From the NCBI GenBank assembly GCA_051294905.1, contig CM119371.1, forward strand, positions 7,814,001 to 7,874,000: a stretch of DNA of 60,000 nucleotides, written 5' to 3'. Each line of letters begins with the position of its first letter. Position 1 is the stretch's first letter. This document shows positions 19,103 to 59,270 of the stretch, piece after piece. The translations under genes were made by a program, and so were the position numbers. The notes under the pieces are model-generated. The model saw only the letters and a list, made by a program, of their open reading frames with translations. It ran no database searches and was not told the DNA's origin. This DNA comes from Botryllus schlosseri (lineage: Eukaryota).

Positions 19103-19628
19103 TAGGGTTGTAATTTCTCGAGTCTATTTTGCAAATGCGAAAAATGACTCAAGTAGAGTCAATTTTTGTATGGACTCGACTTGTACTCGAGTCATTGTGC
19201 CTGACACAAACCAAGTCGTATGACTCGAAACTAGCATTGCCAAGACAGACAATTTATTGCAACTTCGAAGAATAGTGAAGTTACAACATTATTGGTATTT
19301 CTCCTATCAGTCCTGATACTTGGAAAATATGGCCAGAAACTGTTAGGAATGAGAAAAATTACTATAATACGAATGCGAGCCATTCTATATCAATTATCAC
19401 TCAAGCAGAGGTGAAAAAGTAAGTTGAACCGGATTGAACTGAGAACAGAGTAGTGAACATAATGACTTGTACTCGGACTCGAGTCAAAACACTGACCCGA
19501 ACTCGACCCTCTACTAGCTGACTTTGACTCCGACTTGACTCGGGGGTGAATTGAAAATGAATCGAGTCAAAGCTATAAAAGTGAGATTGACCTGTGACTC
19601 GGAATCTCGTTACTTGGTTACAACCCTG
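19103..19628. mobile_element. GACTC-rich hAT-type MITE
   Basis: TIRs TAGGGTTGTAA / TTACAACCCTG, TSD GCTTTCAG/GCTGTCAG; same family as 45035-45591 in opposite orientation. Confidence 0.8.
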
Positions 19629-37944: not shown

Positions 37945-40900
37945 CTCTAGATTCTAGAACACTGGTTCTCAACCTTTTTGACTTTGTGGACCCCTTTCGG
38001 ACCGTCACGGACCCCGGCGGACCCCCACGAAGTTTTAGCCCAATCCTCGTGCAATCGTCATCTGTCTTGTGAAAATGACAACTGTAGCGTTGGGGATAAA
38101 CAGCTACAAAATGACTTGTGACTTGTCTTGAACATAAAATCATACCATTCATGTAAAAATTGGGTTGACCTCTATTATTTCAAAGCAAATTCTGCATCTG
38201 TATTTCGTGCAATACGCGGTCGTCTCTTGAAAATCCGTGCCTTCGATTCGATATGAACAATGCCGAGAATCCATTTCCACAGGGGGTGGCGAATATAATA
38301 ATAACGCGTAACGTTTCCGACGACACATTTGGGTATGATCGCAACAAATATGGTATTACCAAAATTGACAAACAATTTTTTGTAATGGACATATGACGTC
38401 AAGCCTAGTCATTTCTATCTAGCAGCTTTTCCTGAAGTTATGAAGGAAAATGGTTATGTATATCACATGAGCAAATGGATTTTTGTAAACATTTCGAAGT
38501 CACCGTGATTGACCTCACTCAACCAACTTTTTCTCCACAATCCCCAACAAAACATCTGTATGCAGCAAAATGTTTGTATCAGTAGGCTATCGGCAAATTA
38601 GCAATAAAATGAGTCTGCACAGTCGGATATTTCATCTCAGACGGCCATTCTGTAGATGTGGCACATTGTGGCACAGCTCGAATTATCCACTATGCAATTA
38701 ACATGAAAGAAAGAAAGACAGATTTGCTAAATATCCTTCCCTTTTCAAGTTTTTAAAGCATGGACCCTCTAATATCCTGAAATGTATGAATCATTCAAAT
38801 ATGGCAGATATCCAATCCCGTATAATAAAAATGTAGATAAAAAAAATCCAAGTGTAGCTCTTTTGTATGAGTCAGCAACTAATGAAGAGATTGAACTTAC
38901 TAATTTTGTCTTTGCACACTATCCTGATTACAAGCACACGCACTCTTACTACTAATATACATTGTTCATAAATGGAATTTAGTTAAGTAGTCAAAGACCA
39001 TAGGCTATGTCTAGTCTACGTGTACTTAAACAAGTATTCAAGGATTGGGACTTGCAGTCTTTCTTAATCATTTGTTCGACCAAAACAGCTAAGCTACACT
39101 ACAAATATTTTTAGTTTTGTTAAGTGGGAAGCATCGTTTGGCATATTTAGCCTACATCATTTTTACAATTTTACAAAACCAGCCGATGCATTTGCTTTGT
39201 AACAGTATCATGGTATAATTCTAAAAATTGCATCAATTTTGACTGCATCACGAAAACGCATATTGCGATTTTCTTCCCCTGTGCAACTGAGTTGTAATTT
39301 GCAAGTAATGTCTAATTTTATCTATATCAGGAGTGGGCAACTTTTTCGGCCAAAGGGACACATGACATTTACGAACAATTGCGCGGGCAACTGGAATGTT
39401 GATAACCTTTTTTTAGTCGTCCGATAGGAGCGAACCGAATCAGGTAACATTGCAAACAAGACTTATATGAATACGGTCTAAAATGGATAACAATATGTCA
39501 TGCAACTGTGCAGTGCGCAATTAGGCCCTGGTTGCGCGAAGCGCGGAATTTTTTGCAAGAGAATGACTCAATTATATCAATAAATACGTTGCTAACATAC
39601 ATTGGGGGTCGCATCTGTATACCATTGGGCTCATTTGGCAAGGACAGGATTATTCGACGTTTAGACATAGCAAGATCGACTGTATCAGTGAACATGCCTC
39701 TATCATTTTGTGCAAATGTTTTGTCGACGAGCTCGCTGCGAGTGCACAAGCGAAGCCGCATGTTGGACGAAACGTTATCTCCTAATTGCGAATATAGTTA
39801 TACTCAGTTCTGTGAATAATATGTATTTATAATTTTCAGAAGGGGGCTCAAATACTGAATGCAAGAAATCTAGTGACAATGAATCATGCGAAGTACCGAG
39901 AAAATTTCAAGTCAAATAAATCTGCTATGAAATATTCTACTTTATGGTCATATACGAAGATCTGGGATAAATGTGGCTGGCCCCTGGATACGTCAATGCG
40001 TCAGAACTGTTGTTTTAGTCATCATCAAATTTCGCGGTCATGCTAATCAAATTTTGGTTCGCCTCGCAATTGTACCTGATGTCATAAATAATTTCGAGAA
40101 TTACCTCGCAGGCCACACCTAACATTCTCGTGTGCTAAATTTGGCATGTGTGCCACGGGCTGGCCGCACCTGATCTGTATGGATATCAATAACGGTGATT
40201 GGTGGTACATAAAAATTCTATTGAAAATTCTTTGAAAGCAAATGTTTTCATGATTGAGAAGTTGGAGTCGGAGTCGAAGTCAGGGTCATTCTCACAAACT
40301 CCGACTCAGACTCCAGTCAGTATTTTTCCCACGACTCCGACTCCAGCTATTATAGTTTTCACGACTCCGACTCCATCAAGCGAAAATTACCCAGACTCCG
40401 ACTCAGACTCCACAGCCCTGGTCATATCCAACATAAAAGCACTACTTTTAATATTTTGTGTTTACTCTATAAAACGTTTCAAAAATCACAAGCAGCCGAA
40501 ACTAAATTAATTGTCTCCGAATAAACATTTGCATTGCTTTATTTGGTTAATTTAAGCTCATATTGCTTCTGTAGGATAAATAAAATGCGAGTGTCATAGT
40601 CCAAACTTATGCTGGTAACTTATAATTATGTGGGTTGTCTCGTTTGGTACTGGACCAATAGTAAGCTAACATATATAAGCACCAATCTACTCTGGTATAT
40701 TTCTTCAAAAATCTTCAGATATTGTGGGACACTTTCTTTTTGCCCATCGCTGACTATGCCAAGGTTTTCCAGGAAATTATTTCGATATTTTAGCGTTTTT
40801 TAAGTCTTCTGTCTTCGGTATTCCAACATAAACATACGAAAGTTGCACATGTGTATCAGGATTACATGTGCATTGTGCATTCTTATTGTCTGACCACTCA

Positions 40901-41489: not shown

Positions 41490-41700
41490 CACTGTAAAAA
41501 ATGAACATGGATATTATCATGGAAATGACATGACTTTCTTTTTCTCATGTTAATTCCATGAAAACACCGACATGGTTTTAAAATCTCATGTTGACATGAT
41601 AAAAACTTCCATGATGGGACATGATAAGGGACCTATGTCTATGCCCAGCAAACACATTACGGCAAGCGGATATCCGTCGGATAACTTGTCATTTGGCCCA
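41490..41700 (+). mobile_element. CACTA/EnSpm-like left terminus (possibly two nested termini)
   Basis: TA followed by CACTGTAAAAAA and about 9 spaced CATG motifs; then CCCAGCAAACAC at 41644. No partner right ends found in the window. Confidence 0.45.
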
Positions 41701-41814
41701 GATTCATCCTAGAGCCATCCGGTTGAACCGAGCGTGTCGACTCCTGGTGTTATCCAATGGGTGACCACTGACCGTCCATCAAGTCAATTCTGAGTCACTT
41801 CCTGGCCACTGTAG

Positions 41815-43013
41815 GGACGAAGTCCGGTTGGGACCGATATCCATAGACTATCCACTAATAAATGGTCAAACCATCAACACGAAGTCCATGCTCACACTAA
41901 AGGGTCACGGATGGCTGGATCATCAGGTTTTAAATGCTGACAGCAAGCTAATTATAGTAGCTGTTGTCATCTGATACTCATTGATATCTTATTTGCACAT
42001 TTCTCACAGATCATGGACTCCACCATGTCGATTTTTACATCCACCCTCGCAAATGTGAGTACAATTATATTATAACTAGCATTTTGAAAACTGCATATGC
42101 GCATTTGTTCCGCAGGGATGCTACCAAACTGTGTCGTGTCAATACGCAACTGAATGGTGGTTCAGAGGCCAATTTCAAGCATGTTATCACAAGTCAATGG
42201 TATGTGGTGATTGGAGTATCACGTATAAAATGCTGTAAATGACATAATGCGGTTCTGTCTGTATGCTGCAGATCGATAGCATGTTGAAACGTCCACGTCC
42301 ATTGATCACGTCACTGCATGTCCATGGAAACCATTGGATATTCTTGGTATGAGCATTGTGCATTGAATTTGTCTTGTGACCTGTATAGTGCAGGCCTACA
42401 TCGAACAATATGTTATTGCATTTAATAGGGAATTGATTTTGATTGCGGTAAAATAACAATTTACGATCCCATGGGCCATGAAGAAACATATGAAGAAAAT
42501 ATTATGAAAAACTGCAGGTTAGATGACGTATTGTACGTATTGACGTATAAAATAAAGATAATCATGAAATATGGTCATTTGGTGTACATTTATTATACAA
42601 TATAAATTTACCATTTAAACTATTTTCGTTTTATCAGGAACTTTTTCAACCTCTACACTGCACATCGCCATTCTTTGCAAAAGAACATTTATCACCACGA
42701 GCAACAACAGGATGGATTCAATTGTGGAGTATTGGTGTTAAAAGTAATCTAATGATATGATGTGTACAACGAAATTAATTTCCTCACTATCTCAATATTA
42801 CACAGTTTGCGGAGCGTCTTTTGAGAGGTCTCCCAATTGACTTCCCCTATGACGAAAAGAGTTGCGACCAATATAGGGAACACTTTGGGAACATAATTCT
42901 GAACTACGAGAGGTAATGTGTAGTCACATGTATTATATTCAATCAAACTGTGGTTCATCTATGTAATTCCATTTAGGCATGAGGAATGTCAAGCACCTGC
43001 TTCCAAGAACTGA
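41815..43013 (+). CDS. Ulp1/SENP-like cysteine protease (peptidase C48, clan CE), spliced; 5' end not defined
   Basis: Eight GT-AG exons join in frame: 41815-41926, 42010-42054, 42116-42199, 42272-42346, 42429-42517, 42638-42743, 42806-42912, 42977-43013. Translation contains TLKGHGWLDHQIMD, HGNHWIFLGIDFDCGKITIYDPMG and QQQDGFNCGVLVLKFAERLLRGLPIDF, i.e. the ordered C48 motifs with His, Asp, Gln and Cys. Confidence 0.85.
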
Positions 43014-43120
43014 TTTGCGTCGGAATCGGTTCTTTACATTTTGTGTTTTCTTTATTAAAACCACTTTGTTTTACTTTGCCTGAATTCTACTGTTTGTATA
43101 TGATCGAAGGATTGTGAATT

Positions 43121-44500
43121 GTCCGGGATGTTGCTTAATGAACTTTGAAAATGGTACATAGGCGCGACTGGTAATCGCAATTTACGCGTATTGATAGGCC
43201 CACTTCAAAGTGATAGTTGGACATCGAGTCGGACCTAGAATTGTTCTAATTTACTTTTATATCAACGTTTATGATCATTGGAGTATATTAAAACCAGATT
43301 GGTACTCGGGAAACTGTCCGGAGTGTTGCTTAATGAACTTTGAAAATGGTACATAGCCGCGGCTGATAATCGCAATTTTCGCGTATTGATAGGCCCACTT
43401 CAAAGTGATAGTTGGACATCGTGTCGGACCTAGAATTGTTCTAATTTACTTTTATATCCACGTTTATGATCATTGGAGTATATTAAAACCAGATTGGTCC
43501 TCGGGAAACTGTCCGGGGTGTTGCTTAATGAACTTTGAAAATGGTACATAGGCGCGGCTGATAATCGCAATTTTCGCGTATTGATAGGCCCACTTCAAAG
43601 TGATAGTTGGACATCGTGTCGGACCTAGAATTGTTCTAATTTACTTTTATATCCACGTTTATGATCATTGGAGTATATTAAAACCAGATTGGTCCTCGGG
43701 AAACTGTCCGGGGTGTTGCTTAATGAACTTTGAAAATGGTACATAGGCGCGGCTGATAATCGCAATTTTCGCGTATTGATAGGCCCACTTCAAAGTGATA
43801 GTTGGACATCGTGTCGGACCTAGAATTGTTCTAATTTACTTTTATATCCACGTTTATGATCATTGGAGTATATTAAAACCAGATTGGTCCTCGGGAAACT
43901 GTCAGGGGTGTTGCTTAATGAACTTTGAAAATGGTACATAGGTGCGGCTGATAATCGCAATTTTCGCGTATTGATAGGCCCACTTTAAAGTGATAGTTGG
44001 ACATCGTGTCGGACCTAGAATTGTTCTAATTTACTTTTATATCCACGTTTATGATCATTGGAGTATATTAAAACCAGATTGGTTCTCGGGAAACTGTCCG
44101 GGGTGTTGCCTAATGAACTTTGAAAATGGTACATAGGCGCGGCTGATAATCGCAATTCACGCGTATTGATAGGCCAAATTCAAAGTGATAGTTGGACATC
44201 GTGTCGGACCTAGAATTGTTCTAATTTACTTTTATATCCACGTTTATGATCATTGGAGTATATTAAAACCAGATTGGTCCTCGGGAAACTGTCAGGGGTG
44301 TTGTTTAATGAACTTTGAAAATGGTACATAGGCGCGGCTGGTAATCGCAATTCACGCGTATTGATAGGCCAAATTCAAAGTGATAGTTGGACATCGTGTC
44401 GGACCTAGAATTGTTCTAATTTACTTTTATATCCATGTTAATGATCATTGGAGTATATTAAAACCAGATTGGTCCTCGGGAAACTGTCCGGGGTATTGCT
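43121..44500. repeat. Tandem array, 7 near-identical copies of a 195-bp unit
   Basis: Unit start GTC(C/A)GG at 43121, 43316, 43511, 43706, 43901, 44096, 44291 and a partial at 44486; only scattered substitutions, no indels. Confidence 0.97.
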
Positions 44501-45034
44501 AAATATGTTGACGCGCTACTCATCAGCGCAATTCATACATGACTTTTTTTATCGCTGTGGATGTGATTTCTGTTGACTTAAAACGACAGTGCTAGTATAT
44601 TCAGCTATATCTTAGTCGAGAAACTACTTATAATAGTCCTACTATTCTAGATTTATCACATTTTGTATTTCATGTTCATGGTGACTCATTTTTTATTTCC
44701 GTTGATATGACAATCGTGCTACGATGATAGCAGTATTTCATAGGTTGTCTTTGTCAAAGTTGCAAAGTATATGGCTTGTTGCTGTATTAAGCCGTGGATT
44801 GGATGGTAAGTATTGATGTATTTATTGTTCCTGTCTTCGTTGTAATATATCCGCCGAATCTGCAATGCGTCACTGGGTATAGTCGAACCTGAAGCAACTT
44901 AGTCGTATTCAGTCGGATACCGGTATATAGCGGGAACTGCCAAACGGCTGCAAATAGTGATCAAAGTTTACTGCGTATCCATTTGTATGTAGTTGTAGAT
45001 CATGTTGAAGTTGGTAATGCGTTAGTAGTCCTAG

Positions 45035-45591
45035 CAGGGTTGTAACCAAGTCACAAGGCTCCGAGTCACAAGTCAATCTCACTCTTATATTTCGACTCGA
45101 GTCAAGTCGAGTCATTTTCAATTCCCACCGAGTCAAGTCCGAGTCCAAGTCAGCGAACAGAGGATCGAGTCCGAGTCCAAGTCATTGTGTTGACTGCTCA
45201 GTTTCCATTTAAAGTCTTCCTAAACCCACTTTTTTAACTCTGTTTGGTGATATTGAATGGTTCGCATTTATAATATATCAATTTGCCTCACTTTTAGCAG
45301 TTTCTGGTCGCATTTTCAAGCACCAGTACCAACAAACGAAATCCCAATAGTGTGTTGGCTTCGAAATTACAATGAAATGTCGGTCTTCGCCGTCTGAATC
45401 TCGAGTCAATGACTTGCTTCGAGTCCTGCACAATGACTCGAGTCCAAGTCGAGTCAATTCACAGATTGACTCGAGTCTAGTCGAGTCATTTCCGTATTTT
45501 GAGAAAATGACTCGAGTCGAGTCGAGTCATCCAAAAATCGTGACTCGAGTCTGACTCGAGTCGAGTCATTACTCGAGTCATTACAACCCTG
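45035..45591. mobile_element. GACTC-rich hAT-type MITE inserted in the cassette
   Basis: TIRs CAGGGTTGTAA / TTACAACCCTG, TSD AGTCCTAG/AGTTCTAG. Confidence 0.85.
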
Positions 45592-45989
45592 AGTTCTAGA
45601 CGTTTCACAAGCTTCCTTGTTTTTATTTTGTACCGTACTGGGCAATGTTAAAGTGAAGTATTTATCCAACTGGAGGAATATTCATCCTGAGGTGATTGAA
45701 GAAACTTCAGCTTTAAAAAATATGGGATATCATGCTATACTCGAGTCTTTGATTCAAGATTTGAAAACCCTAGAAACATAAGGAACTGATGTAAATTTGT
45801 ATTTTACAGATATATATACTCAAGTTGTGGTACTTGTGAAATAAGTGCCCGGAGGTCTAGGCGGCAATAGTTGTTGCATCATAAAATGGGAGTGTTGTAG
45901 GATAGTAAGTGTTTTACATGTACATTGAAATGAGGGTGAAAAAATCACCAGGTCTGGTAAGGAACAAGTGAAAAAAATGACCCTGCCAT

Positions 45990-47078
45990 ATGAATAACAC
46001 GGGTTTAAAATATGAGAGAATCAGTAAATATGAGGTATCAAGAAAAAGAAGGTTTGACCCGCAAAGGACGGTAGAGAGTGGATGGACGCCACATACTGTC
46101 TTGTTTACTTGCGCAGATACGTGGGGAGGAACCTACAATGTGTTGAGTTTGATCGAATCGGGTGCGCTTCTCAACACACAAGACTGTGTGCTATTTCTGA
46201 GAAATCACGGGTTGTTGGTGCGAAGGATGAAATGCAAGCGATGTAGAAATATAATGAAAGAGGAAAATACTTCGACAGGCTACGATGGGTTTAGGTGGCG
46301 ATGCAACCCCTGTGATACTACGGCGACTATACGGAAACACTCGATATTCGCGGGAAGCAAGGTAGAACTTCCCAAATTATTAATATTGTTCTACTTTTGG
46401 GCCCATGACGCGTTGCAAACTCAAATTGCGCATGAAGCAGAGATTAGCCAGCGTTCAACGGTCACTTGGTGTGGCCGTTTGCGAAAGCTTTGTTCGGCCG
46501 AATTTCACAGGAAGAAACGACGTTTAGGAAGTGAAAAAGGCTGTGTGATCATTGATGAAACGCATTTAGCTAAGCGCCGGGCTGCCTCGGGTAAAGGACC
46601 AGCTGTTAAAGCCATTTGGGGGTTCGGAGGCATAGATAAAGCTACCGGAAAAATGTTCATAGAAATAACTTCCGACAGGACTGCTGAAGTATTCCGAAAA
46701 CTCATAGTAGAAAATGTGGCAGAAGGGTCCACAATTCTAACCGATGCCTACCCTTCCTACAGGGGCATAGAGAGCTGGGGGAAGGGTTATACACACGGTG
46801 TAGTGGACCACTCCCGTTGGTTTAAGGACCCTCGGACAGCTTTTTGTACTAATGAAATCGAAGGGGCCTGGGGACAGCTCAAATATCATTTACATAGGTC
46901 TCGTGGTTTAGCACGTCATCTTTTGGCCGATTACGTAGGGGAGTTTTTGTGGAAACGTCAACATCAAAAGACTGACCGATTCTTGGCACTCCTGCGTACC
47001 ATACACAATGACCCACAGTATAATTTTGATAAATTTGATGGGTCTCCTGTATTACCACCATTGGAAACCCCGCTATAG
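45990..47078 (+). CDS. Merlin / IS1595(IS1016)-family DDE transposase
   Basis: 362-aa open frame with Zn ribbon CKRC..WRCNPC, IRKHSIFAGSK, catalytic VIIDET, WGFGGIDK, ILTDAYPSY, HGVVDHS, TNEIEGAWGQLK and YVGEFLWK. The true start is uncertain (possible splice acceptor at 46116). Confidence 0.93.
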   Translation: MNNTGLKYERISKYEVSRKRRFDPQRTVESGWTPHTVLFTCADTWGGTYNVLSLIESGALLNTQDCVLFLRNHGLLVRRMKCKRCRNIMKEENTSTGYDGFRWRCNPCDTTATIRKHSIFAGSKVELPKLLILFYFWAHDALQTQIAHEAEISQRSTVTWCGRLRKLCSAEFHRKKRRLGSEKGCVIIDETHLAKRRAASGKGPAVKAIWGFGGIDKATGKMFIEITSDRTAEVFRKLIVENVAEGSTILTDAYPSYRGIESWGKGYTHGVVDHSRWFKDPRTAFCTNEIEGAWGQLKYHLHRSRGLARHLLADYVGEFLWKRQHQKTDRFLALLRTIHNDPQYNFDKFDGSPVLPPLETPL

Positions 47079-47163
47079 GGTTCTAGGACGGAAATGACGC
47101 TATCTGTTATTTTGTGTTTTTACAGACGTTAGTCTAGGGCTAGTGCGCGATTACATTTAATTT

Positions 47164-47307
47164 ATGACGTGGAAAGAATCACCACCACTATCCGTACCAT
47201 GGACCTCCTTCCTCATTCTCTGTCTATCCTTGTTGGTATCATTTGTACATCTGATTTGTTGCTGCATACGGCGGCGCAAGGCATGCGCGGACTCGCAGAT
47301 CCTGTAA
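47164..47307 (+). CDS. 47-aa single-TM micro-protein overlapping the glycoprotein start
   Basis: First ATG after the acceptor at 47125: MTWKESPPLSVPWTSFLILCLSLLVSFVHLICCCIRRRKACADSQIL*; hydrophobic helix, then CCC, then RRRK. Confidence 0.55.
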   Translation: MTWKESPPLSVPWTSFLILCLSLLVSFVHLICCCIRRRKACADSQIL

Positions 47308-49715
47308 CAAGTAGAGCACGATCTTTCACTCAGGGGACACTAGGTGAACTACGGGGACCCCTGCCTGATGAATGGGTCACTTTAAATGATACACAATGGG
47401 AGGACTATCACTTGATGAGCATATTCAATAAAACTGCGGAGCGACATGTATATAGACGGCCTGAGTTGTTTTACAGTAAGTCATTTGGTTACGTAGTGGC
47501 TGAGCGACTTTCGTTACAACAAATGGCGTTTCCACATGGAAGATATTGGTCAAGCGTACAAGAATTTGAACGCACTTGTCTATGTCAGCGGCGCCTGGGT
47601 CAAATCACGCCCAATATTTCCTATGATGTTCTTAAACAAACGAACATGTTCATACGTCCAATAGGATTTTATAGGATTCAGTGGTTCTGGAATGGGGACC
47701 AATACTTGTTTCATGACCTTGGCAGGAATTACTCCATGTTTGCTCTTACCAAATTTAAATTGATTATGATCCGACTATTCGAAAGTTACTCAGCTGTTGA
47801 AGCTTCATGCCGTCAAGAGCAAATGGGAGATCAGGACAAAGAAAAAATGAGTGAATTGAATAAGTATAATGCCAGTAGCAATAGTTTTACACAATGCTGG
47901 CATCTAGTACATAAAAACTACGCCTCCCACAGCACCTTTTGGCAAAAATTTCACTCCTGGAGGGAAGAAGGGATCATAATAGGAATCTGTACAAGGTGTA
48001 ATTTTAGAGGAGTGATTTCTGCCCTGGAACCAAATAAGGCAGATATAATCATCCAAGAAATAGTAATGACTACAGTAAGTGACTGGCAGTATGTGCGCAA
48101 TAAGTTGATACCATGCCGGGCCCAGGGGGGATGGATTAATCAGGACTGGTTTGCGCACTTATGGCCCAAGAATGCTGTAATAGCCCATTCGTGCAACTTC
48201 TGGCCAGGAATGAATACCACTCTATGGGGTGATCTACCAACGACAAATTTCCCTCCGAGAGTAAAATGGATACAACCGTCTTTTCCAAATGTGGATCATA
48301 GTGTGTATGCTAATCGTGGCAATCAGGGCATGAAGTGGAATAATCTTTTTGATGGTGAGCCGACTAGGTTTAAGGCATCTACATCAACATGGGTACCTTT
48401 TCCCAGGCCAATGTGGAAATTCTTCCCCTCTCTTACTGCGTCGGACATAGCATGTAAAAATAGAATATCACGTAACCAGGATTTGTGTCGCGACCCTGTG
48501 GGCGGACCCATTTTGAAGGCAGCATTTTGGGACCATGTTCATTTTGATCCGGAGCTAAACCGACCACGTTTCCCAGGAGGCCCAATAGAAATTAAGGGAG
48601 AGATAGTATCGAGTGAGAGTATCAAACGGGGTACGCGTGGAAGACGTAAAAGGTTTCTGTCCGGATTATTATGTCTAATATTCGGCCTGGTGTCAGCAGT
48701 AGCCGTCGTGGCGTCAGTTTCATCCCAATTGCATGAAGAAACGGTAGATCTGACCAGACAAATCAATGATAGAATGACGCAAGCTACGCAGAGGTCCACT
48801 GCACTAGGAAGGAAGATTAACGAGCTCTCTCGGCTCCAGATAGCTCAACAACAAAAATTGGACCAAACAGTGGCCACTATGGAAGTTAGGTCATCACTAG
48901 TAAATAAACGCCTAGTATTATTGGAAAAATACATAGAGAGGAATCGACAGATGATAGTAACACAAGCAACAGCCTCTTTGACCTCTTTTCAAAACTATAA
49001 AGAAATGAGTGATGCCGAACTAGCCATCGATCGATTGGTTTTAAATGAATTGGCTAATTTAACTGGCAAGTTAATATTTGACTCCAGCAAGGTATATCTC
49101 ACGAAAATCCGACAAGGAACGTTACGTATAAAAGAACATGCTCAACAATTCACAGCCTATAGAGACGCTTACATCAATGAGACGAATGACATCGGAGTGG
49201 AACTACGTGCTAATCGTATAGGTCTAGATCAAGCCCAACAAAATGTAGATTTCGGGTTGCAAGTTTGGAGAGAAGATCTGAATAAGAGTGTGTACATGAA
49301 CATTTCTGATTGGCGATATGAGAATATTACAGTGAAGCCTTTCGAATTTGTGGGAGGAAAAGAATTTATGAAGAACTTTGGCCAAACGATAGAAGAGATG
49401 GCACATGCTTCCGGAAGCTTGATAAAATCAGTTGGAGATAGTGCAGGAGATCTACTACAAGACGGATTAGGTGCGGTCGGAGGAATATTCAGTAAGGGAA
49501 TGAGCGGAATTTTTTCCGGCCTGGGGTCTGTTTTAATTCCAGTAATTTTGATATTGGGGGCTGGGATCATCTTGTTTTGTTGCTGTCGTTATAGCAGTCT
49601 TTGCTGTCCTAAGTTAAAACCTAAAGTACAAAGGCGAAACGCGAACACTCAGTTGACAATGTACATATCGTCGGTGCCTACCTACCCGAAAACAGCCAAA
49701 TCAACAAGGATGTAG
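47199..49715 (+). CDS. Viral-type class I fusion glycoprotein-like protein (838 aa from the ATG)
   Basis: ACCATGG start, signal-like N-terminus, many NxS/T sequons, multibasic RGRRKR then hydrophobic FLSGLLCLIFGLVSAVAVVASVS, long heptad region, Gly-rich amphipathic membrane-proximal segment, TM VLIPVILILGAGIILF, tail CCCRYSSLCCPK. Intronless. Confidence 0.8.
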   Translation: MDLLPHSLSILVGIICTSDLLLHTAAQGMRGLADPVTSRARSFTQGTLGELRGPLPDEWVTLNDTQWEDYHLMSIFNKTAERHVYRRPELFYSKSFGYVVAERLSLQQMAFPHGRYWSSVQEFERTCLCQRRLGQITPNISYDVLKQTNMFIRPIGFYRIQWFWNGDQYLFHDLGRNYSMFALTKFKLIMIRLFESYSAVEASCRQEQMGDQDKEKMSELNKYNASSNSFTQCWHLVHKNYASHSTFWQKFHSWREEGIIIGICTRCNFRGVISALEPNKADIIIQEIVMTTVSDWQYVRNKLIPCRAQGGWINQDWFAHLWPKNAVIAHSCNFWPGMNTTLWGDLPTTNFPPRVKWIQPSFPNVDHSVYANRGNQGMKWNNLFDGEPTRFKASTSTWVPFPRPMWKFFPSLTASDIACKNRISRNQDLCRDPVGGPILKAAFWDHVHFDPELNRPRFPGGPIEIKGEIVSSESIKRGTRGRRKRFLSGLLCLIFGLVSAVAVVASVSSQLHEETVDLTRQINDRMTQATQRSTALGRKINELSRLQIAQQQKLDQTVATMEVRSSLVNKRLVLLEKYIERNRQMIVTQATASLTSFQNYKEMSDAELAIDRLVLNELANLTGKLIFDSSKVYLTKIRQGTLRIKEHAQQFTAYRDAYINETNDIGVELRANRIGLDQAQQNVDFGLQVWREDLNKSVYMNISDWRYENITVKPFEFVGGKEFMKNFGQTIEEMAHASGSLIKSVGDSAGDLLQDGLGAVGGIFSKGMSGIFSGLGSVLIPVILILGAGIILFCCCRYSSLCCPKLKPKVQRRNANTQLTMYISSVPTYPKTAKSTRM

Positions 49716-49801
49716 TACATACATATGTACTAAAAGGGTTTTGCTTTTATAAAATTTAACTTTTCATAAGTTCACAGATATACTAACTAATTTATAATGA
49801 T

Positions 49802-52800
49802 ATGAACTGTTACCAGAAAATATGGATTGTGCTGACAGTATCTTTAATACTGCACCGAGGATATCTGCAAACTCATGGCGAATTATTGCCCCTATCTGCT
49901 ATGAGTGTAGTGCCCAGAATCACATTTAATCTTACAGGATGGACAACGTTCCGGTATCAAGGTCTCAGATACCTCCGCCTTAATCGGCTATTCAAATTAA
50001 ATGAGAGTTGGCCAATAGGTGAAACGGAAAATAATTTTCCAATACACGAAGAAACACCCGAATTTGGTCCAACACGAGCTGGCAAAGATCAATTGTATAA
50101 GTTATTTGCACCCTCAAGGACTGAGAGGCGGTATTGGAACAATGTAAGGCAATACGAAAGAGAATGCGGATGCAATCGAAAACTATCACGAGTATCTCCC
50201 GATATTATGTTATCGGCCTTGACCAGAACCATAACGTATCGACGGAAAAATAATTTCGGATTAATACATACATGGAAATATGTTGTAGGGCGGGAATCAA
50301 GTTTTCCAATAGTCGTTCCTAGAAATCTCCGTCGAGTAATCTCTCCAAATACAACCCCAGAAGTTACTATACACCAGCTGTTGACCGTTTACAAGTTATC
50401 AGTGATGAACCACTTGGCACAATATGCAACAGTAACAGCAAGGTGTCGACAACATTCGGAAGGAATCGAGGGGTGGAAGGTCAACAAAGGCGAATTTAGT
50501 GTATGTATATTCGAAAATACTAGCGGAATGCAATGTATAGGATGTGCATTTTATACAGACAATCGGGCAGTAAATACACTGTCCAGGGAATTTGTGTTCA
50601 TGGAAATAGATAACAGCATTAGAGGACTAGGAACAAGAATGCAAGAAACCTATTCCTACAGTCAATGGCCAGCAGGAGTCAAACTACCCAGATTACATCA
50701 CGACATCGTGTGGTTAAAGGCTCGAAATGAAACCGGGCCCAGAGAGAGGCCAGCAAACTTTGATGGTCATACTTGGTTTAGATTGAGGATTTACGCCCTT
50801 CGCGAACATCTAAATAATGAAACTCAACGGATAATGGGAAGGAAAAATTTTCCGACTATGTTGCTAGGCAGCATAGAATGTGAACGCAAGAAAAATAGGA
50901 AAGTTTGCCGTAATGCAATAGGAAGTTTGAAGACGGCTTTGGCCTTTAAGGAAGTGTTATATGACCCATACACAAACCAATCCGTGTATGCAGATCATAG
51001 CAATGGTCGATTAAAAATTGCATCTCCAAGACCTACAGGTCAGGAACCTCCACTCGAGGCATGGCCCAATAATCTATCGTATTGTAAACAACCCGGGAGA
51101 TTAGGCAATTTTGTTCTGACTGCATCACTTCAAAACAATGGACAAAACACAAAAAATATGGATTACTATCTAGCCCGCCTAGGAATGTTTTATGTAGAAA
51201 TAACGAAAAGACGTTTACGCCAGTTGTCGCTTCCCATATACAAAAAGCGAAAAAATCTAGAGAGGCTGGAAAGACCAATAACAATAGCTGACATGGCTTC
51301 TTTAAGTCAGGAACTAGGATCAATATTGACGCAACGGAAACTGAGTAGGGTAAACGAGGGGCTATTAAGCTACATGTCGACGAAAAAATTGAGAGAGGCG
51401 CCACTTCAAGACGATATGCGGCTATTTCGACCTAGCGTTGCCTACAAAGCTATAATATGTGCGGGTATATTGGTATATACACCTTATGCCTATAAGGAGA
51501 ATATCAAAATGAATACGAACTCCGCACGGCCATCAAGTTTTGCAAAAGTAATAACATCAAGGCCTATCAATCATGAAGATACCACTCGAATGGCGGTCCC
51601 CAATAGCGAGTCTAGCACAGTGTATAATTTCACTCCTATTAATATAAGTCAACAACCAACTATGAGAACGGGGGAAACCATCACAAACACTGAGGGGAGT
51701 GTAAGAATGACGAATCAATACGATACTAACCGCTATAACTACGATTATATAGAAGATTATGACGAAGGATTTAGCTATGACGGATATGACAATAATACTA
51801 GTTTTCAAGACTCTGGAAATTACTACTATGACTACTATGACGAAGACGGAGAATATGAGGGTTCACTTAAACGTAGGCCCCTACCCGTAGCTGATACTAC
51901 GGATTCCACAAATATTATTGAAACTACAATGGTGTTACCGATGATTGAAGCTCCAACATCGACTAAAAATACTCAATATGCAATCAAGTTAACAACGGAT
52001 ACAACAATTCCAACGCCAGGAACGTCTGCATATACGTCAGGTAGTATTACGTCCCCACGAACAACTACTGCGATCACACCATATACCAGAGGGTTGGCAT
52101 CGGCCATTATCAATTCCGGAACGACTTCATCGACACCGCTTCCAGCCATATTAACAACTGTGCATTCCTCGCGAGAAGATAACACCAGCCCAAGATCAAC
52201 TGCATCTATTTCTACATTCTTAGCTACAGTGAAAACTATGAGTGAACAAGAAAGACGTGGGACGAGCCCCACAACTATATTCACAACTTTGAAACTGTCT
52301 ACATCTATATCAACAGAGATGGACGTTCAGAAAAACATTGGTATTGCTACGACAGGACTCACCTTTTCCAAAAGTAAGTTAACAACGCTTACAACAATGG
52401 AGAGAACGGCAAACGCACAGTTACAATGGAATACCATGGCTTATCAAGGATCCACAAAAAACGGTGAAATGTTAGGCTCCATACCCGTGCCAATAAAGAA
52501 AACACCCCAGATTACGCAAATACCTGAGTCTTATATACAATTAAGTCATCACACAAGTCAACTCATGGACACAACATCGCCTATAGCGCATTTCAAAATG
52601 TTGCTGGATACAACACCAGTAGCAACGACGGTTGAAACGCACCAATATTTCGTCACCAGCAAGTCCCGCTCTAATACAGAACCAGATAATTCAAGCAGAG
52701 AGCAAGATATACAGGTAAGAACTAAATCAACATCAATGCTTTCATCAGGGGATTATCAGAGCGAACCCACATCAGTAAGTAAAAATGATGTGATCAGAAG

Positions 52801-53209
52801 TTGGAAGAGTACTTCCAATAGTGCACTTTCTTCAATTACGCCCGCTGTCAAAGAAGAAGGAAAAACTACACTCAGTATACCGCATACCTTACCTACGGCC
52901 AAATATGACAGACTGGACCGAATTACATTTGACTTCTATGGACAATTGCACAAACTACAAAAAATGGAACAAGGATATGCAGAAGGTAGAATTATTGTTG
53001 ATATTAACAATAGAAAGGATTTAGAAGAATCACTTAACAATCATGCCCTGATTTTTGCGGTTAGCGTCACAGCAATGTTAGGATGCATGTATTTATGTTA
53101 TGCGAAATGTGGGAGAGTCGCTTCAAAAAATTATCTTAGGGAGGTTATTCGACGGAATAACCGAAAAACGTATATTACAGCAGTAACGTTGCACGAAAAA
53201 CAGAGATAG
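49802..53209 (+). CDS. Type I membrane glycoprotein with paralogous head domain and mucin-like stalk (1135 aa)
   Basis: Signal peptide, Cys-containing N-terminal domain alignable by eye to the upstream glycoprotein, Tyr/Asp-rich segment, long Thr/Ser-rich region, TM LIFAVSVTAMLGCMYLCYA, basic tail. Intronless. Confidence 0.8.
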   Translation: MNCYQKIWIVLTVSLILHRGYLQTHGELLPLSAMSVVPRITFNLTGWTTFRYQGLRYLRLNRLFKLNESWPIGETENNFPIHEETPEFGPTRAGKDQLYKLFAPSRTERRYWNNVRQYERECGCNRKLSRVSPDIMLSALTRTITYRRKNNFGLIHTWKYVVGRESSFPIVVPRNLRRVISPNTTPEVTIHQLLTVYKLSVMNHLAQYATVTARCRQHSEGIEGWKVNKGEFSVCIFENTSGMQCIGCAFYTDNRAVNTLSREFVFMEIDNSIRGLGTRMQETYSYSQWPAGVKLPRLHHDIVWLKARNETGPRERPANFDGHTWFRLRIYALREHLNNETQRIMGRKNFPTMLLGSIECERKKNRKVCRNAIGSLKTALAFKEVLYDPYTNQSVYADHSNGRLKIASPRPTGQEPPLEAWPNNLSYCKQPGRLGNFVLTASLQNNGQNTKNMDYYLARLGMFYVEITKRRLRQLSLPIYKKRKNLERLERPITIADMASLSQELGSILTQRKLSRVNEGLLSYMSTKKLREAPLQDDMRLFRPSVAYKAIICAGILVYTPYAYKENIKMNTNSARPSSFAKVITSRPINHEDTTRMAVPNSESSTVYNFTPINISQQPTMRTGETITNTEGSVRMTNQYDTNRYNYDYIEDYDEGFSYDGYDNNTSFQDSGNYYYDYYDEDGEYEGSLKRRPLPVADTTDSTNIIETTMVLPMIEAPTSTKNTQYAIKLTTDTTIPTPGTSAYTSGSITSPRTTTAITPYTRGLASAIINSGTTSSTPLPAILTTVHSSREDNTSPRSTASISTFLATVKTMSEQERRGTSPTTIFTTLKLSTSISTEMDVQKNIGIATTGLTFSKSKLTTLTTMERTANAQLQWNTMAYQGSTKNGEMLGSIPVPIKKTPQITQIPESYIQLSHHTSQLMDTTSPIAHFKMLLDTTPVATTVETHQYFVTSKSRSNTEPDNSSREQDIQVRTKSTSMLSSGDYQSEPTSVSKNDVIRSWKSTSNSALSSITPAVKEEGKTTLSIPHTLPTAKYDRLDRITFDFYGQLHKLQKMEQGYAEGRIIVDINNRKDLEESLNNHALIFAVSVTAMLGCMYLCYAKCGRVASKNYLREVIRRNNRKTYITAVTLHEKQR

Positions 53210-56200
53210 GTATTGCAAAATAATTACTGAATTATTGTAATAATAGAAGTGAGTGTTGTTACGTGTTGTGTTCGGTCCGTTTGCGCGGTTTAGAGTCCAT
53301 GTGAAATTTACCAAAACCTAAATTTAATTTTATTGAGATAACAATGTGTAAAATTTATGCTGTGTTTGCCTATGGAGGCCTAAAAGTGTGTGGGGTTTGA
53401 GAATGTACGAGGCAAATTCGCAGTATTAACGATGCTTATGCAACGAATATCATTGCGAAATACATAATTGCGAAATTTTTGGATGGTATTGCTAAGCCAA
53501 CTCAGGACTGAGTAATACCTCAGTTTGTAAAACATGGAAGCGGATGGCGTTATTTTTGTAAAATATAGCCATAAATGATGGTGGGAAAGGAAACGTTGCA
53601 GTGGTAAATTGACTCATAGGAAATAATTGACTACAGCAAAATGGCGAAATTTGACTGCTATTGGGGGTTTAATCACGCTGTAGTACGAATGGTAGCGACA
53701 AAAATTTGCTAGATGAATGTTCGGATGTGCGTCAGTCCCTACTTTATGGAGATAGGGAATTGCTCCTGGTGAGGGGGGCGGATGTATGTGTGTCAACGAC
53801 CTTCCGCTCAAAACTGGATATAACTCGGGGCGCAGGATCAAAAAATTCAGTTCACTCTACACAGAGCTGAACGGGCATGAAGAATCTAGAAAGTTAACAG
53901 AGTTGACTAAGATTATGACAAGTTAGTCAGATCTTATAGACAATGACTGTTGTACTTGATAGATAATAATTAGTTTATGCCATGCGGATGGATAAATGCA
54001 AGATGTCATCTTAAGGGCTGTCGCGTTATAATTTTGTTAAATTTAACAGATTGATGTTGGATATTGATCTGATATAGCCACAGCATTTGGGGTCGAGCAG
54101 TGTGGCTAATCCAGGATTGGGGTACACTGCCGATAACTGGGCTATTAATCTCTTGATTGTTTTCGGTCAAATACCATGGAATGGTGGGGCATATAAGCAA
54201 CAATATAAAAATATTATTAAAGGCGTCATAGTAATATAAATGTCTGAACGGCTGACATCATCACATCGTTGGAGCGTACCACTGCGGTATTCAGTAGCCA
54301 GTACCTTTAAGTGGCCTTAATAACAGGGATATAAGGACCCACGATGTAACTAAAAATGGCCAATTGTTGACATAAAGACTTGCTTAGATAGCGGAGTACC
54401 AAGCTACTACCATCTGATCTAATACTATTCCCTATGAGACGTGAACAGTTAGTTGTCCCTATATTTATGACCAAGTTACGGCGTTCCAAGTCAACTTGAG
54501 TCATTCTCATTTTGTCATCGAGTCTGCCTGAATCCGAGTAATTCTACGCGGGTTCGCGTCCAAATCACAATAGACTTACAAATTTCAGTCATGAATCATC
54601 TAAGGATCCGGATTTATCTTCATAAAATAGAATTGTGGCAAAATATTGAATCTTTACCGCATGGTAGTGTTTGCAATTGATGTGATAGTTAATTTTGATA
54701 AATAATCTCAGACTCTCGGAGCAATTTGAGAAGGAATTTTAACTTCTTAACATAAAAAGATATATGTCTGTCACTTACAAATTGTCAAATACTTGAAATT
54801 CTAAAATGTCTTCGCGGGCCGCACAGAATAATCTGGCGGGCCGCGTGTTTGAGATCTCTGAGTAAACCAAAACACTTGCAGCGACATAAATGGACGCTCG
54901 TAACCGCAAGTACTATAGACCGCAAATCGTAATTTTGCACGACCATATGTGATGTCACAATAAATCAGTGTACGTACATGGTACCTTTAGATTACTAGTA
55001 GGCATATACAATACACACCCAACGGGCACGATAACGCACTTCAAATCAATGCATGCGCTCAATGTAGGCCTACCGCGTCAAAATACTGATGTGCCGTCTT
55101 CCGCAATGCACTCATTACTACCAAGATAAATAGTAATTTATAATGATACATATATTCAAGTCTGACTGAAGCAAGAACAATAACATTGTGGGACGTTATC
55201 GACTTGACATTCTAGTTTAAACAAATCGAATAAAATCAAAATTGATGCTGCTGTGAACCTGATTTAACGTTGCGCAGTTGAAGCATATTTCGATCAACGT
55301 TTTCAACAATATTGGTGTTTGTAATTAAATCGGCGCCTGGTAAAATTTCGATAGTACAAAAAAGAACTGATGCTCACTTTTCTATAAAGGGGAGAGAGAA
55401 AATTAACGGGACATTCATAACTATGATTATATTCACTCGCTGCGCGGATATCTCTACTATACAAAATAAATTCTAAACACTCGATCACTCATAATGTCGC
55501 CTGTGTCTAAAAAAAAAAAGTATGGCTGATTCCTGCTAAAGACGTTTGCAAATACAATCATTTGCGGCAAATAAGGACGGTAGATTTGGAATTTTAAAGT
55601 TTATAGAATCAGCCTGCGGTCGACGCGTCTTGCTACCGTAGCTGTTCCTCACATACACTAAATATAACAATATTGGTTAGCATAAGTAACTACTGTAAAA
55701 GTGGTAATTTCAAGCGGCAGTGGCACAATCACCAACCTATTGAGTATCGAAGCTGCCTCTCATTGTATACCGCGCACTGCACAAGGTTGACAATAACATT
55801 AAGACTACAAGAAAATGCCAATAATTTTATAGTGTGTGCTAATGTACATAATTCCATGGTCTCTCGAGTCACTGGCCTCAAGCGATTTGGGTTGGCCTGA
55901 TTTGACCAATCATTCAATGACAATGCGCTTTGTTGGGCATATATTTGACATAGCGTCACGAATATATGGATCGCGGGCTAAGGGAAAAAAATTACGGACA
56001 ATGCTAGCGTAAACTATAGCGTTCTATTAAATCCTTTATTTCGGTTTGATAAAACAAACTAAGAACGGTGCGTTTACTAAAATGGATTATTAATTTACTT
56101 ATATGTGAACCATACACCGCATTATCTGTGTACCTATTTAACGATGTATATTCATGGGTCAGATGCCAGCGACCACTCGATCTGTATTGCAAAAACCTGA

Positions 56201-56699
56201 TAGAGTACAATGATGTAATTACGTCTTATGCCTGGTAAAGGCAATTCGATTTGAATCTTGGTTTGACTCGAGTCGCCGTCAGTAATTAGTTGCCTTGACT
56301 GGACTCGATCAAAAGAGGCAGTGATTCGAAATGACTCATGACTCGAATGTTATGCCTAGTTTCATCATTTGCAATTTAATATTAATGATTTAAAGTACAG
56401 TATTAGGATTGAGACACAACCAATAAGAATCTTAAATCAAAATGGTTTTTTGATATGGAATGTGTTTTGACCCTGACTGGCTACGCTACTTCAATTACTG
56501 CATTCGATACATTATGGTAGTTATTTACGTCAGGTAAGGAATTCTGCTTCAGGAAATCTGAGCTATCACATGAATAACTAGCTTAAAACAAGCCTTATAA
56601 CTATATGTACCTTATAACATCTAACTAGACCATTGGGTTAGGCTGACGACTAAAATGAATTGTGACATCGCAACTAAGTGGAATACAATATTACATTTG

Positions 56700-59270
56700 A
56701 GACAATACGGTATATATACCTACCTTGGTGATAACTGGCTTTTGGCTCAGGGTAATCCGGGGTTGGTACATCCTATATATTCCGTTGGAAAGGTATACCC
56801 TTTGCAAATTCTGGTATCTCCCAAAAATTAAGGTTATCCCGGTTGAGAAACACTTGCTTCTAGGTTCAAAATTAACTAAGCTTATAAATACAACTAGCCT
56901 AGTCTGACCAAACTTAAACATTGCGCTCTAAGTAATTCAATAACACGCGGTTGCCACAAACGAAGACGAGTCGCATAAATAGCTTCATGTACTGTCAAAC
57001 TCATATTACGCTACGAGCCGGATAATAGTTGAATAATAACAATTCTGCTCAAGACGCAAAGTGATTAATCCACTTCAATGTTTTAAGCCACTAGTACTAT
57101 AATATTGGAACCGTTCTCGAAGCTCCCTTAGGTGAAGATTGCTAATATGGACCTGGTATCTAAATCTGTGTGACAGGAGCCATCCCAATTACTTGGTCCT
57201 TGTAGAATGTCTTAAATGATGGAACAATACTTGGGGTGAGTCTAGTTATGCGCATTCGTATATATAAATATGACAAGATCAAGTATATTTCAGGTCAAAG
57301 TGCGTTCCCATTAACACAATAATGATCTATATACTGGACATTGCTTTGTTGTTTTTTTAGTAACTAGGGCTCGCGCAAACGCTGGTTATGTGCGCTCGGT
57401 GACTTGATACGAGAATTTAAAAGATCGCAACGAAATGATGACATTGATTTGGATTTAATATTAGTGTTTCTATTTTCACAATAATCTATCCGCACATGCT
57501 CAATAATACTATTCAGTACTACCAGAGGTGATTACGACGCTGCAATGATCCAGCTACAGAGGCGAAAGGGATGTTCCTATAATCTGTCTGCGAAAGGCCG
57601 CGTACAACGAATTAATTTTGTAAAAATAATAAATTGTATCAGAATTAGACACTTGCGTTTCGCTCTAGTTTAGTGGAATTGGACGACTTGACAATTCCGA
57701 CATCAGATTTGCACTGCACCACGCGCAGGTTCATCTTGGCATGTAAGCGGTAAGGAGTATCAAGAACCTCATACCGTAGGCCGCTGTGCATATTCTATTG
57801 TCGTTAATTTACCTAACTCATGACGGAGAATCAATTGCAAACGCATGGGCTATACTGGATTAATAAATGGATAGTCTAAACGAAACAGATATCAATTTCG
57901 ACATGAAAGTTATTTTAATACTGGCTGACTGCGTCACTTTATTTACTAGAATTACCGAATTGCGTTTTATTAATTTAGGGTAAGAAGCAGTGTGGAGATG
58001 ACTCGAGTCACTTGGGAAAAATATATTGACTCGTGTCTCGAAGCAAAATTTACGATTCAATATCAAGTCATAAAATAAACGGGTGTCGAATAAATCACTG
58101 TAGCGTGCGTATACTTGAATGGCTGTGTCAGATCATAAATAAATTGACCGTAAATGAAACAATCACGGCTGACGCTGTCGTGGTAGTTATCGTTTTGTTT
58201 CATTAGAAGGCTCAATGCTTACGTTGTGCAGTGCGTATCCGTCTATATTTTGGTCAATAATGACTGGCTGTAGCATTTAGCTTTACAATCGCTCACGTAT
58301 TTTACTTGCGCGTGACTGATACAACATCTTTTTGCATGTATAGTTAACTACATATTGGTTATTCAATTCAATGTGGATACCGAAATATTAATTTGACTTG
58401 AATTGTGATTTGACTTGTAACTTGACTTGGCTTGATCCTATTAAGGGTCTGCCATGACTCGGGATGACTCGGGACTCAAAGGGAATCGATCTCAACACTG
58501 GTTTATCGCCGACTAGTAAATGATTAGGATACATATCACAATCAAAGGGTATACATTGTCACACTAAAATAATATTCTACCAAGTTGCTAGCTCGTCTGT
58601 GTGTTAATCTATACTGAACCATAAACCTATCTTTACAATAACTGGTCTTCGGCTCATTGTATTACGGAACTGGTACATCCCTGTAAATCCTATTCGAAGG
58701 TTACACCATGTTGCCAGTTCTGGTACATCCCATAGTACGTGGTAAAACGAGCTCTTGTCCATAATTCTAAAACTAAAATTGCTTTGTCTTAGCTAAACCC
58801 TGAAGCCATAATGCGACGCCAAGCATATACGACAGCAGGGACGAGTCGCATAAATGACTTCCTTAATTGACAAACTCGTACTGCATTGCGAGGCGAATGT
58901 TATTGATTACTGACAATTGTGTACGTTACAAACTATAAGAGCTATGAAATTGTAAACCTACTGTAAGTCATGACAAACCTCGGCTTTGACAAATCGTACC
59001 GTTTTCAAACCTTTCTCGCGTACTGAAATACTGTTCAGAAATAAGTGTGCTTGCTGGTGCCATATTAGGAATGTTCATTTTAAAGTTAGTGCGTCGGTAA
59101 CCTCTGCAATATTAACTCAAATATATTCTGATTGTCAGGACATGATTATAATTCACCAGAAATTGTTGTGCGGGTATGGAGATTTGTATGACGGGAGCTG
59201 CCTCCGTCAGTTGGTCCATCCAAAATAGTTGAAATAATGGAAAAATTGCTTGAGGCAGTTCTAATTATAC
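56700..59270 (-). repeat. Diverged direct duplication (about 1.9-2 kb spacing) with exon-like blocks
   Basis: 56725-56830 resembles 58635-58740, 56965-57030 resembles 58840-58910, 57150-57240 resembles 59170-59260. Confidence 0.55.

Follow-up and report, generated by a model that had tools for sequence, protein, structure and literature searches.

DDE transposons are regarded as non-infectious passengers, and we know of no agreed vehicle for their frequent horizontal transfer. Mavericks, which are 15–20 kb in length, encode a capsid, a polymerase, a packaging ATPase, a protease and an integrase of the retroviral type, and their fusogen is gB-like (class III). A review presents Teratorn as the first known case in which a cut-and-paste transposon and a DNA virus have fused (PMC10175614), and according to one survey DDE transposons lack genes for fusion and attachment proteins. 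A literature search covering full texts, with subscription journals outside its coverage, returned no description of envelope genes in a DDE transposon, whether of the Merlin/IS1595 group or another, save Teratorn. Merlin elements (Feschotte, 2004, as summarized in PMC8101967) possess terminal inverted repeats (TIRs) of 24–462 bp with a terminal 5'-GG and target-site duplications (TSDs) of 8–9 bp, and the same paper describes Merlin transposases mostly without the N-terminal zinc finger of IS1595, with few eukaryotic exceptions. In the present work a stretch of 60,000 nucleotides from Botryllus schlosseri (contig CM119371.1 of assembly GCA_051294905.1, positions 7,814,001 to 7,874,000 of the forward strand; hereafter the window) was analyzed, in which a cassette of three genes encodes a transposase, an F-like envelope glycoprotein (F) and a G-like glycoprotein (G). 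We read this cassette, with somewhat more belief than doubt, as a repeated capsid-less mobile element in which a DDE transposase of the IS1595/Merlin type is joined with an envelope module whose two genes represent a new viral-type family.

The cassette consists of three intact open reading frames (ORFs) on the forward strand, namely the transposase gene (45990–47078, 362 aa), the gene for F (47199–49715, 838 aa) and the gene for G (49802–53209, 1135 aa), and these represent three of the only four stop-to-stop frames of at least 150 aa in the whole window. The spacers are short, with 120 bp between transposase and F (47079–47198, forward strand) and 86 bp between F and G (49716–49801, forward strand), in agreement with a preliminary description of this DNA that had reported an intact Merlin-type transposase followed by two co-oriented large glycoprotein ORFs with gaps of about 90–120 bp. 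When 107 of the 125 window ORFs of at least 75 aa were scanned against Pfam (the remaining 18 overlap positions 41985–53021), a Pfam family was found in none of the 107, that is, no recognizable capsid, polymerase, reverse transcriptase, integrase or packaging ATPase; no direct repeats resembling long terminal repeats (LTRs) were found around the cassette in the window, and no gag or pol. The earlier statement that capsid, polymerase and reverse transcriptase are missing from the window was thus confirmed. Rfam and tRNA scans of the cassette region gave no match.

This gene content bears on an explanation that we consider unlikely, in which a larger virus-like element uses the cassette as its module for envelope and integration, or in which the cassette is non-autonomous and obtains capsid and replication functions from elsewhere. 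The missing genes would then lie outside the window or on helpers acting in trans, for instance an unknown DNA virus, a Polinton/Maverick or an errantivirus. In its favor, a pair of glycoproteins would hardly be usable in the absence of a particle, the window ends 6.8 kb past G, and envelope modules are known to pass between element types, as illustrated by F-type and gB-type env genes in Ty3/gypsy elements (PMC13524379). On the other hand, none of the 107 scanned ORFs has a Pfam family, and no LTR-like repeats were found around the cassette.

The product of the first ORF (ORF1) matches the Pfam family DDE_Tnp_IS1595 (PF12762) with an E-value of 5.8e-11 and 43.1 bits, the gathering cut-off being 27, and the NCBIfam model NF033547 (IS1595) with an E-value of 1.5e-18 and 67.5 bits, which is under the NCBI bacterial cut-off of 75. 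PF12762 was also matched by 6 of 6 transposase homologues, and residues D189, D252 and E291 are invariant in all 6 rows of the alignment; judged from their position in the domain, these would be the catalytic residues. With a score above the gathering threshold and an invariant D, D and E, the identity of ORF1 as a Merlin/IS1595 transposase, as assigned in the preliminary description, stands. Ahead of the catalytic domain there is a zinc-ribbon-like CxxC...CxxC motif that is kept in the four rows (4/4) covering that part. PF12760 was not matched, and a weak match to FYVE_2 (E 0.0059) was obtained with 4 of the 6 homologues. In a word-based search among 5.8 billion clustered proteins, the only close relatives of the transposase were five Logan proteins with 55–75% identity, and the next relatives were bacterial IS1595 transposases with 26% identity. 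Three nameless families were matched by the transposase in PHROGs, and nothing else, and a metagenome scan with the transposase alignment yielded a single contig of 1309 nt with 27% identity.

In the case of F, the order of elements is that of a signal-peptide-like start, a surface subunit of about 460 residues (~28–485), the basic motif RGRRKR, and a hydrophobic, fusion-peptide-like stretch of 25 residues (486–510), after which follow long helices with heptad-like segments (516–586 and 626–654 in a crude heptad scan), a Gly-rich region ahead of the anchor, a transmembrane helix (~776–799) and a Cys-rich tail (CCC...CC). In the alignment of the F family, R-x-K/R-R stands directly ahead of the hydrophobic stretch in 20 of the 25 rows that cover the site; the 5 exceptions are two proteins with KEKR or CKKR, one fragment and two G-type proteins. 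In a HMMER search of 1.84 billion cluster representatives, 38 proved to be related to F at E≤0.001, and for ten of these the E-value was at most 1e-30. Records were consulted for 30 of the relatives, all of them nameless; their sources are Logan, ENA and, in one case, JGI, and some are located on contigs of 0.2–2.6 Mb. In a tree of 13 long members, which omits 26 of the 38 matches, mostly short fragments, F of the window forms one clade with P0001, P0003 and P0004 (support 100/99). In two distant members of the family, P0007 (on an ENA contig of 7051 nt) and P0008 (on one of 1.29 Mb), a single ORF of about 1100–1200 aa has 300–400 extra N-terminal residues. The extra part of P0008 contains basic sites and another hydrophobic segment, which gives the impression that a glycoprotein located upstream had been fused in frame to F.

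Sequence comparison with known families revealed little. At E≤0.01, the fusion-glycoprotein families of Pfam matched 0 of 41 members of the F family, and over the same 41 members only two stray Pfam matches were obtained at this threshold, one of them to Lipase_GDSL (E 0.0071). Searching PDB sequences with F and G gave no match, and with the F-family profile the best PDB hit, at E 0.0089, was unrelated and the rows were at chance level. Pattern scans with four F-family alignments against the viral contigs of IMG/VR found no relative, which also speaks against a larger virus-like element, and there was no match in a phage collection. When a protein language model (Atlas) was employed, the clusters closest to F were those of coronavirus S2, paramyxovirus F and influenza hemagglutinin (HA), with a value of 0.91 and 195 of 256 features, a likeness that by the tool's own figures is suggestive and not proof. 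AlphaFold2 modelled the whole of F from a 41-row alignment with a mean predicted local distance difference test (pLDDT) score of 65.9, the surface subunit being confident; helices are predicted at 548–598, 652–695 and 721–751 (pLDDT 50–84), and the transmembrane helix at 776–799. The surface subunit modelled alone reached a predicted template modelling (pTM) score of 0.78 and displays an alpha/beta fold. From its layout, F appears to be a type I membrane protein built like a class I viral fusion protein and is a predicted fusogen, and the earlier view that the glycoproteins are of viral type gains support from the language-model look-alikes, the cleavage site and hydrophobic stretch found across the family, and the structural model.

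A weak likeness in fold between the surface subunit and SGNH esterases as well as the viral hemagglutinin-esterases HE and HEF was also noted (VIA-align Z 2.8–3.3), and this is a lead on fold only. The idea that the surface subunit is a conserved esterase was rejected, as a GDS block is missing from the family and no more than 6 of 20 rows contain D-x-x-H.

G is related to F. Residues 66–398 of G are paralogous to residues 72–460 of F (hhalign probability 99.7%, E 4.8e-27; BLASTP E 2e-9), and G possesses neither the cleavage motif nor a fusion peptide. It consists of a signal-peptide-like N-terminus, the domain that it shares with the surface subunit of F, a Tyr/Asp-rich acidic patch, a mucin-like stalk rich in Ser, Thr and Pro (~700–1000) and a C-terminal anchor (~1081–1101). 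A G-type homologue, P0031, shows 22.6% identity over 576 aa (E 3.7e-22) and has a signal peptide, one anchor and no R-x-K/R-R; a word-based search with residues 1–560 of G gave no match, and an Atlas search with residues 1–600 gave no usable match. We read G as the attachment or shielding partner of F. The acidic patch, at residues ~635–690 (window positions 51700–51870) just ahead of the Ser/Thr/Pro stalk, is rich in Tyr, Asp and Glu with YDY and YYYDYYDEDGEYEG runs, and looks like an adhesive motif of the tyrosine-sulfation type.

Positions 44510–60000 of the window were compared with the Logan contigs of three DNA runs and with the raw reads of an RNA run. One of the DNA runs, X1, was obtained from organism A; in the flank, its contigs do not differ from the window. 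Across 46061–53298 the summed word depth of X1 was 379–2065, compared to 62–229 in the flank bins, so that in organism A the depth of the cassette is about 3–19 times that of the flank. By part, the depth was 1250–2065 over the transposase gene and the 5' half of the F gene, 379–1132 over the rest of F and G, and 642–660 over the next 1.1 kb, a non-coding tail on the forward strand (53210–54332) whose mean is at cassette level, with single places of 124–181. By ~55.5 kb the depth was back at flank level, which also counts against a larger virus-like element. The window's own alleles at 47508 and 47513 account for ~19 of a depth of ~2180–2680, and therefore most of the cassette depth comes from other copies. 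At 46777, 46944, 48125, 49510 and 52861, 1-bp deletions were detected in part of the X1 depth, and from these five places in three genes it follows that some copies are broken. Organism A clearly contains the cassette in repeated form.

These depths also bear on a quite unlikely explanation, that F and G are a fragment of an endogenous virus beside which an unrelated Merlin-type element inserted, the block having been copied later by segmental duplication or as the passenger of a repeat. The greater depth of the transposase and the 5' half of F relative to G would fit such a chance neighbourhood, as would the other repeats all around the cassette. However, the high depth of X1 is continuous from the transposase into F, with no step, to at least 48125, the gap between the two genes is 120 bp, and no inverted repeat was found around the transposase ORF alone.

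From the sizes of contigs listed for homologous proteins, it appears that the genes are also neighbours elsewhere. P0045, a transposase homologue with 55% identity, and P0003, an F homologue with 37% identity to F of the window by phmmer and 33–35% by BLASTP, each have one Logan contig as their source, and its size is exactly 7067 nt in both cases. Likewise, P0004, a full-length F, and P0031, a full-length G-type protein, each derive from one Logan contig, with a size of 5305 nt for both. Three more pairs of proteins are on equal-sized contigs, of 13173, 4788 and 246134 nt, and these may be split F genes or distant neighbours. Equal contig sizes of four to six digits are very unlikely to arise by chance among the ~40 proteins with a listed size, and this suggests that the transposase-F pair shares one contig in a distant relative and that the F-G pair shares another. 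A chance pairing should not outlast a divergence as deep as that of the 7067-nt case, with 55% identity in the transposase and 37% in F, and the chance neighbourhood of a viral fragment and a Merlin-type insertion loses ground accordingly. Transposase, F and G were probably already coupled in the ancestor of the clade of F of the window, P0001, P0003 and P0004.

The cassette is also present in two related organisms, B and C, from which the other DNA runs derive. Its pieces diverge there by 4.8–9.0%, the flank by 2.4–5.4%, and a contig of organism B (49293–50024) bridges the stop of F and the start of G. As organisms B and C carry the cassette at 4.8–9.0% divergence, the cassette is older than the split of A, B and C, and the young insertion that had been proposed in the preliminary description is not borne out.

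A number of observations weigh against reading the cassette as a mobile element with an envelope module. Summed depth is not copy number, and it is uneven, with single places ranging from 98 to 3383 in the cassette compared to 53–468 in the flank. In organisms B and C the depth of the cassette is at flank level and the frames are free of the deletions listed above, and a conserved host locus would look alike. Such a locus could consist of domesticated host genes, namely a fusogen of the syncytin type together with its paralogue and a transposase that was co-opted, fixed under selection and immobile, an explanation that we regard as quite improbable. Single-copy depth in B and C without any of the listed frameshifts, a divergence near that of the flank, and three intact frames are all in its favor. 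It is less easily reconciled with the depth of ~3–19 times flank and the frameshifted copies in organism A, with three intronless genes next to a protease gene that has 7 short introns, with the compact, virus-like spacing of the three genes, and with a transposase that has kept all three catalytic residues.

The ends of the unit belong to the same account. No pair of TIRs was found in 36–60 kb by exact-seed inverted repeats, by blastn-short in both orientations or by a TSD-anchored scan; the best candidate combining TIR and TSD, with 14 of 24 matches, is at chance level, and no exact 8-mer or 9-mer flanks a TIR-like pair. The preliminary description had expected TIRs and TSDs of 8–9 bp for a Merlin element, and neither emerged above chance. 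In organisms B and C, contigs over 44838–45828 run on unlike the window past 45828 (for 445 and 40 nt in two records), so that the cassette is set apart by a break from the features upstream of it. A candidate 5' edge and leader (45829–45989, forward strand) that begins with GG can be drawn from this departure at 45828/45829, and the edge has no partner repeat on the 3' side and no duplicated 8-mer. At the other side, 53693, inside the non-coding tail, is the last position of two contigs from B and C. These searches for ends cover a single copy of the cassette, and with no TIR or TSD found, transposition by the ORF1 transposase is putative only. The lack of a TIR or TSD that would define a common element counts in favor of a chance neighbourhood of virus fragment and transposon, and it counts in favor of domestication as well. 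Of the earlier notion of one mobile unit, it can be maintained that in organism A the transposase gene and both glycoprotein genes behave like a single repeated unit; no TIR or TSD was found for it.

Further observations also weigh against this reading. The fusion subunit of F was modelled at low-to-middling confidence, the mean pLDDT for the whole protein being 65.9. The model of whole F matched no viral structure, with Foldseek E-values of at least 0.49 (PDB) and at least 0.14 (BFVD), and in VIA-align it recovered generic long helices only (Z≤5.7); for the model of the surface subunit, VIA-align reached a Z of no more than 3.7, and the lowest E-value obtained with Foldseek was 0.41. Variants in G were non-synonymous in 13 cases and synonymous in 4, in a small and selected sample. 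The argument from shared contigs is indirect, since it derives from equal sizes and not from gene order or strand; on this argument, the linkage for which the preliminary description had asked, of transposase with F and of F with the G-type gene, appears to recur in distant relatives. Distant members of the F family on large ENA contigs are without a transposase homologue, as judged by the word-based search, which returned 5 relatives of eukaryote type. As these distant members have no detectable transposase homologue, the F/G module may also move together with other partners, a finding that a larger virus-like element would accommodate.

With regard to expression, a pyrimidine tract ending in AG precedes each of the three ORFs, at ~45800–45811, at ~47110–47126 in the transposase-F spacer and at ~49760–49778 in the F-G spacer, the last of which also contains TATAAAA at 49748. 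Neither AATAAA nor ATTAAA was found in either spacer or within 1 kb past G. Because an acceptor-like tract lies before each ORF and no poly(A) signal lies between them, the three ORFs may share one primary transcript that is processed by alternative splicing or trans-splicing. The bulk RNA run of organism A, of which ~6% was read, was almost empty on the ORFs, with bin depths of 0–0.81, and this too has to be set against the reading as a mobile element.

If the cassette is nevertheless a capsid-less mobile element, the element would extend from ~45.83 kb to at least 53.7 kb and would encode three proteins, with no capsid or replication gene. The transposase would cut and insert the DNA of the element. 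F would be cleaved at its furin-type R-x-K/R-R site, form trimers and fuse membranes. F and G, located on the cell surface or on shed vesicles, would carry the element, as DNA or together with the transposase, into neighbouring cells, for example of the germ line, or into other hosts, where after delivery the transposase would integrate it in the recipient. In this way the fusion apparatus would have fusion activity and would serve the spread of the element from cell to cell or horizontally. Going one step further, and here we are rather doubtful, there might exist a lineage of capsid-less 'enveloped' transposons that, by fusogenic vesicles or by cell fusion, infect the germ line or new hosts without a virion and in which a transposase of the IS1595 type is permanently coupled to one glycoprotein for fusion and one for attachment, both from a viral-type family not described before. 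Such a coupling would be old because it is common to lineages whose fusogens are only ~35% identical.

Upstream of the cassette several other features are located. A miniature inverted-repeat transposable element (MITE) occupies 45031–45595, upstream of the unit and outside it, with copies at 8771–9189 and 19117–19628. It is absent in organisms B and C, whose contigs skip it exactly (joint 45030>45596). One MITE had been reported near the unit, and it was found at ~45031–45595. This MITE is rich in short repeats of the GACTCGAGTC type, its summed depth in X1 is 649125 compared to ~100 in unique flank, and it is the sole part of 44510–60000 with clear RNA reads (~71 per strand). The preliminary description had also called the flanks saturated with MITEs; within the window this is true only for ~0.9–38 kb, and the read depth adds high-copy segments. 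In X1 such segments are found at 44510–45026 (depth 6068), 54333–55366 (8353/2362) and 57952–58468 (20996), far above the cassette in all three DNA runs, and they could be separate repeats or element termini that are common to deletion derivatives. A GC-rich palindrome at ~54811–54825 matches the MITE copies at 36063–36077 and 37879–37892.

Further upstream, a 195-bp tandem array (43120–44504; 7.1 copies, 97% matches) is a neighbour of the cassette and corresponds to the array noted before. A spliced gene for an Ulp1/C48-like cysteine protease (41765–43013, forward strand), likewise a neighbour, has 8 exons. Eight spliced GT..AG models of this locus are open and give 229–235 aa from the first exon read, and WLDHQ, GNHW, IYDP and QQQDGFNCG are all present in 3 of the 6 models examined for them, the last three in order. 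We take these motifs to be the His, Asp and Gln..Cys blocks of Ulp1/C48 proteases. Single exons, too short for the purpose, gave no match in Pfam or PDB. A spliced protease gene upstream, as had been described, is supported in part, by open models with motifs in order, and the C48 label depends on the motifs. The seven introns of this gene are very short (~60–120 nt, GT..AG), and the gene ends ~107 bp ahead of the 195-bp array. The earlier inclusion of protease gene and array in the same cassette is unsupported, as the contigs of organisms B and C break at 45828/45829, between them and the cassette.

Elsewhere in the window, positions 2500–12600 are densely filled with diverged repeats of 80–300 bp and 73–89% identity that recur many times (for example 2586–2779, 4094–4279, 5729–6013, 7841–8203, 9455–9822 and 11594–11902), and this field looks like a decayed tandem or MITE cluster. 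At 40199–40524 there is a 30-bp tandem repeat (40302–40375, 2.5 copies) in two overlapping open frames that are rich in Asp-Ser and Thr-Pro repeats and belong to no assigned family.

F and G constitute a nameless family of viral-type surface proteins, found on large contigs of up to 2.6 Mb and on short Logan contigs from several sources, with a surface domain that is confidently modelled (pTM 0.78) and matches no solved structure. If the proposed coupling is true, a DDE transposase with fusion and attachment proteins of its own would provide a testable mechanism for horizontal transfer. It would also represent a second, independent virus-like route for transposons, besides LTR elements and Mavericks, and a minimal starting point of an enveloped DNA virus.

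A comparison with described systems places the cassette as follows. Among Merlin/IS1595 elements, it fits in having 62 residues between the first two catalytic residues of the transposase, where 50–70 are given for blocks 1–2 (PMC8101967), and in the tandem array nearby, as Merlin families with internal tandem repeats are known. It differs from Merlin in that its transposase carries an N-terminal CxxC...CxxC motif whereas most described Merlin transposases are without a zinc finger (PMC8101967), and in that the defining TIRs and TSDs of 8–9 bp were not found around the cassette; from IS1595 it differs in that the insertion sequences described consist of one transposase gene, whereas here two big glycoprotein genes follow behind. 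With class I fusion glycoproteins (coronavirus S, influenza HA/HEF, retroviral Env, paramyxovirus F+G), F shares the order of parts from signal peptide to Cys-rich tail, and as in these systems a second, mucin-like glycoprotein accompanies it; however, F has no significant match in sequence or fold, and its surface subunit is alpha/beta. Ty3/gypsy errantiviruses that carry env (PMC13524379) are likewise genomic mobile elements present in multiple copies, with an intact viral-type fusion glycoprotein that has a conserved furin site and fusion peptide. The cassette lacks their gag, pol and LTR, and its integration would be by a DDE cut-and-paste transposase; in contrast to the F-type ENV of errantiviruses, F has a surface subunit of ~460 residues before the cleavage site, no fusion-glycoprotein match in Pfam, and a paralogous second glycoprotein. 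Nematode Mavericks (bioRxiv 10.1101/2022.07.12.499685) also combine a mobile DNA element with a viral fusogen, and horizontal transfer has been proposed for them, whereas none of the genes of the Maverick set was found in the window, 0 of the 107 scanned ORFs having a Pfam family. Teratorn (PMC10175614) resembles the cassette in that a cut-and-paste DDE transposase is joined to viral genes including an envelope glycoprotein. It is ~180 kb in size, comprises a whole herpesvirus genome of ~90 genes and belongs to piggyBac, whereas here three genes lie in ~8 kb, with a transposase of another superfamily and no capsid or replication genes. None of these three, errantiviruses, Mavericks or Teratorn, joins a small DDE cut-and-paste element with fusion and attachment proteins of its own.

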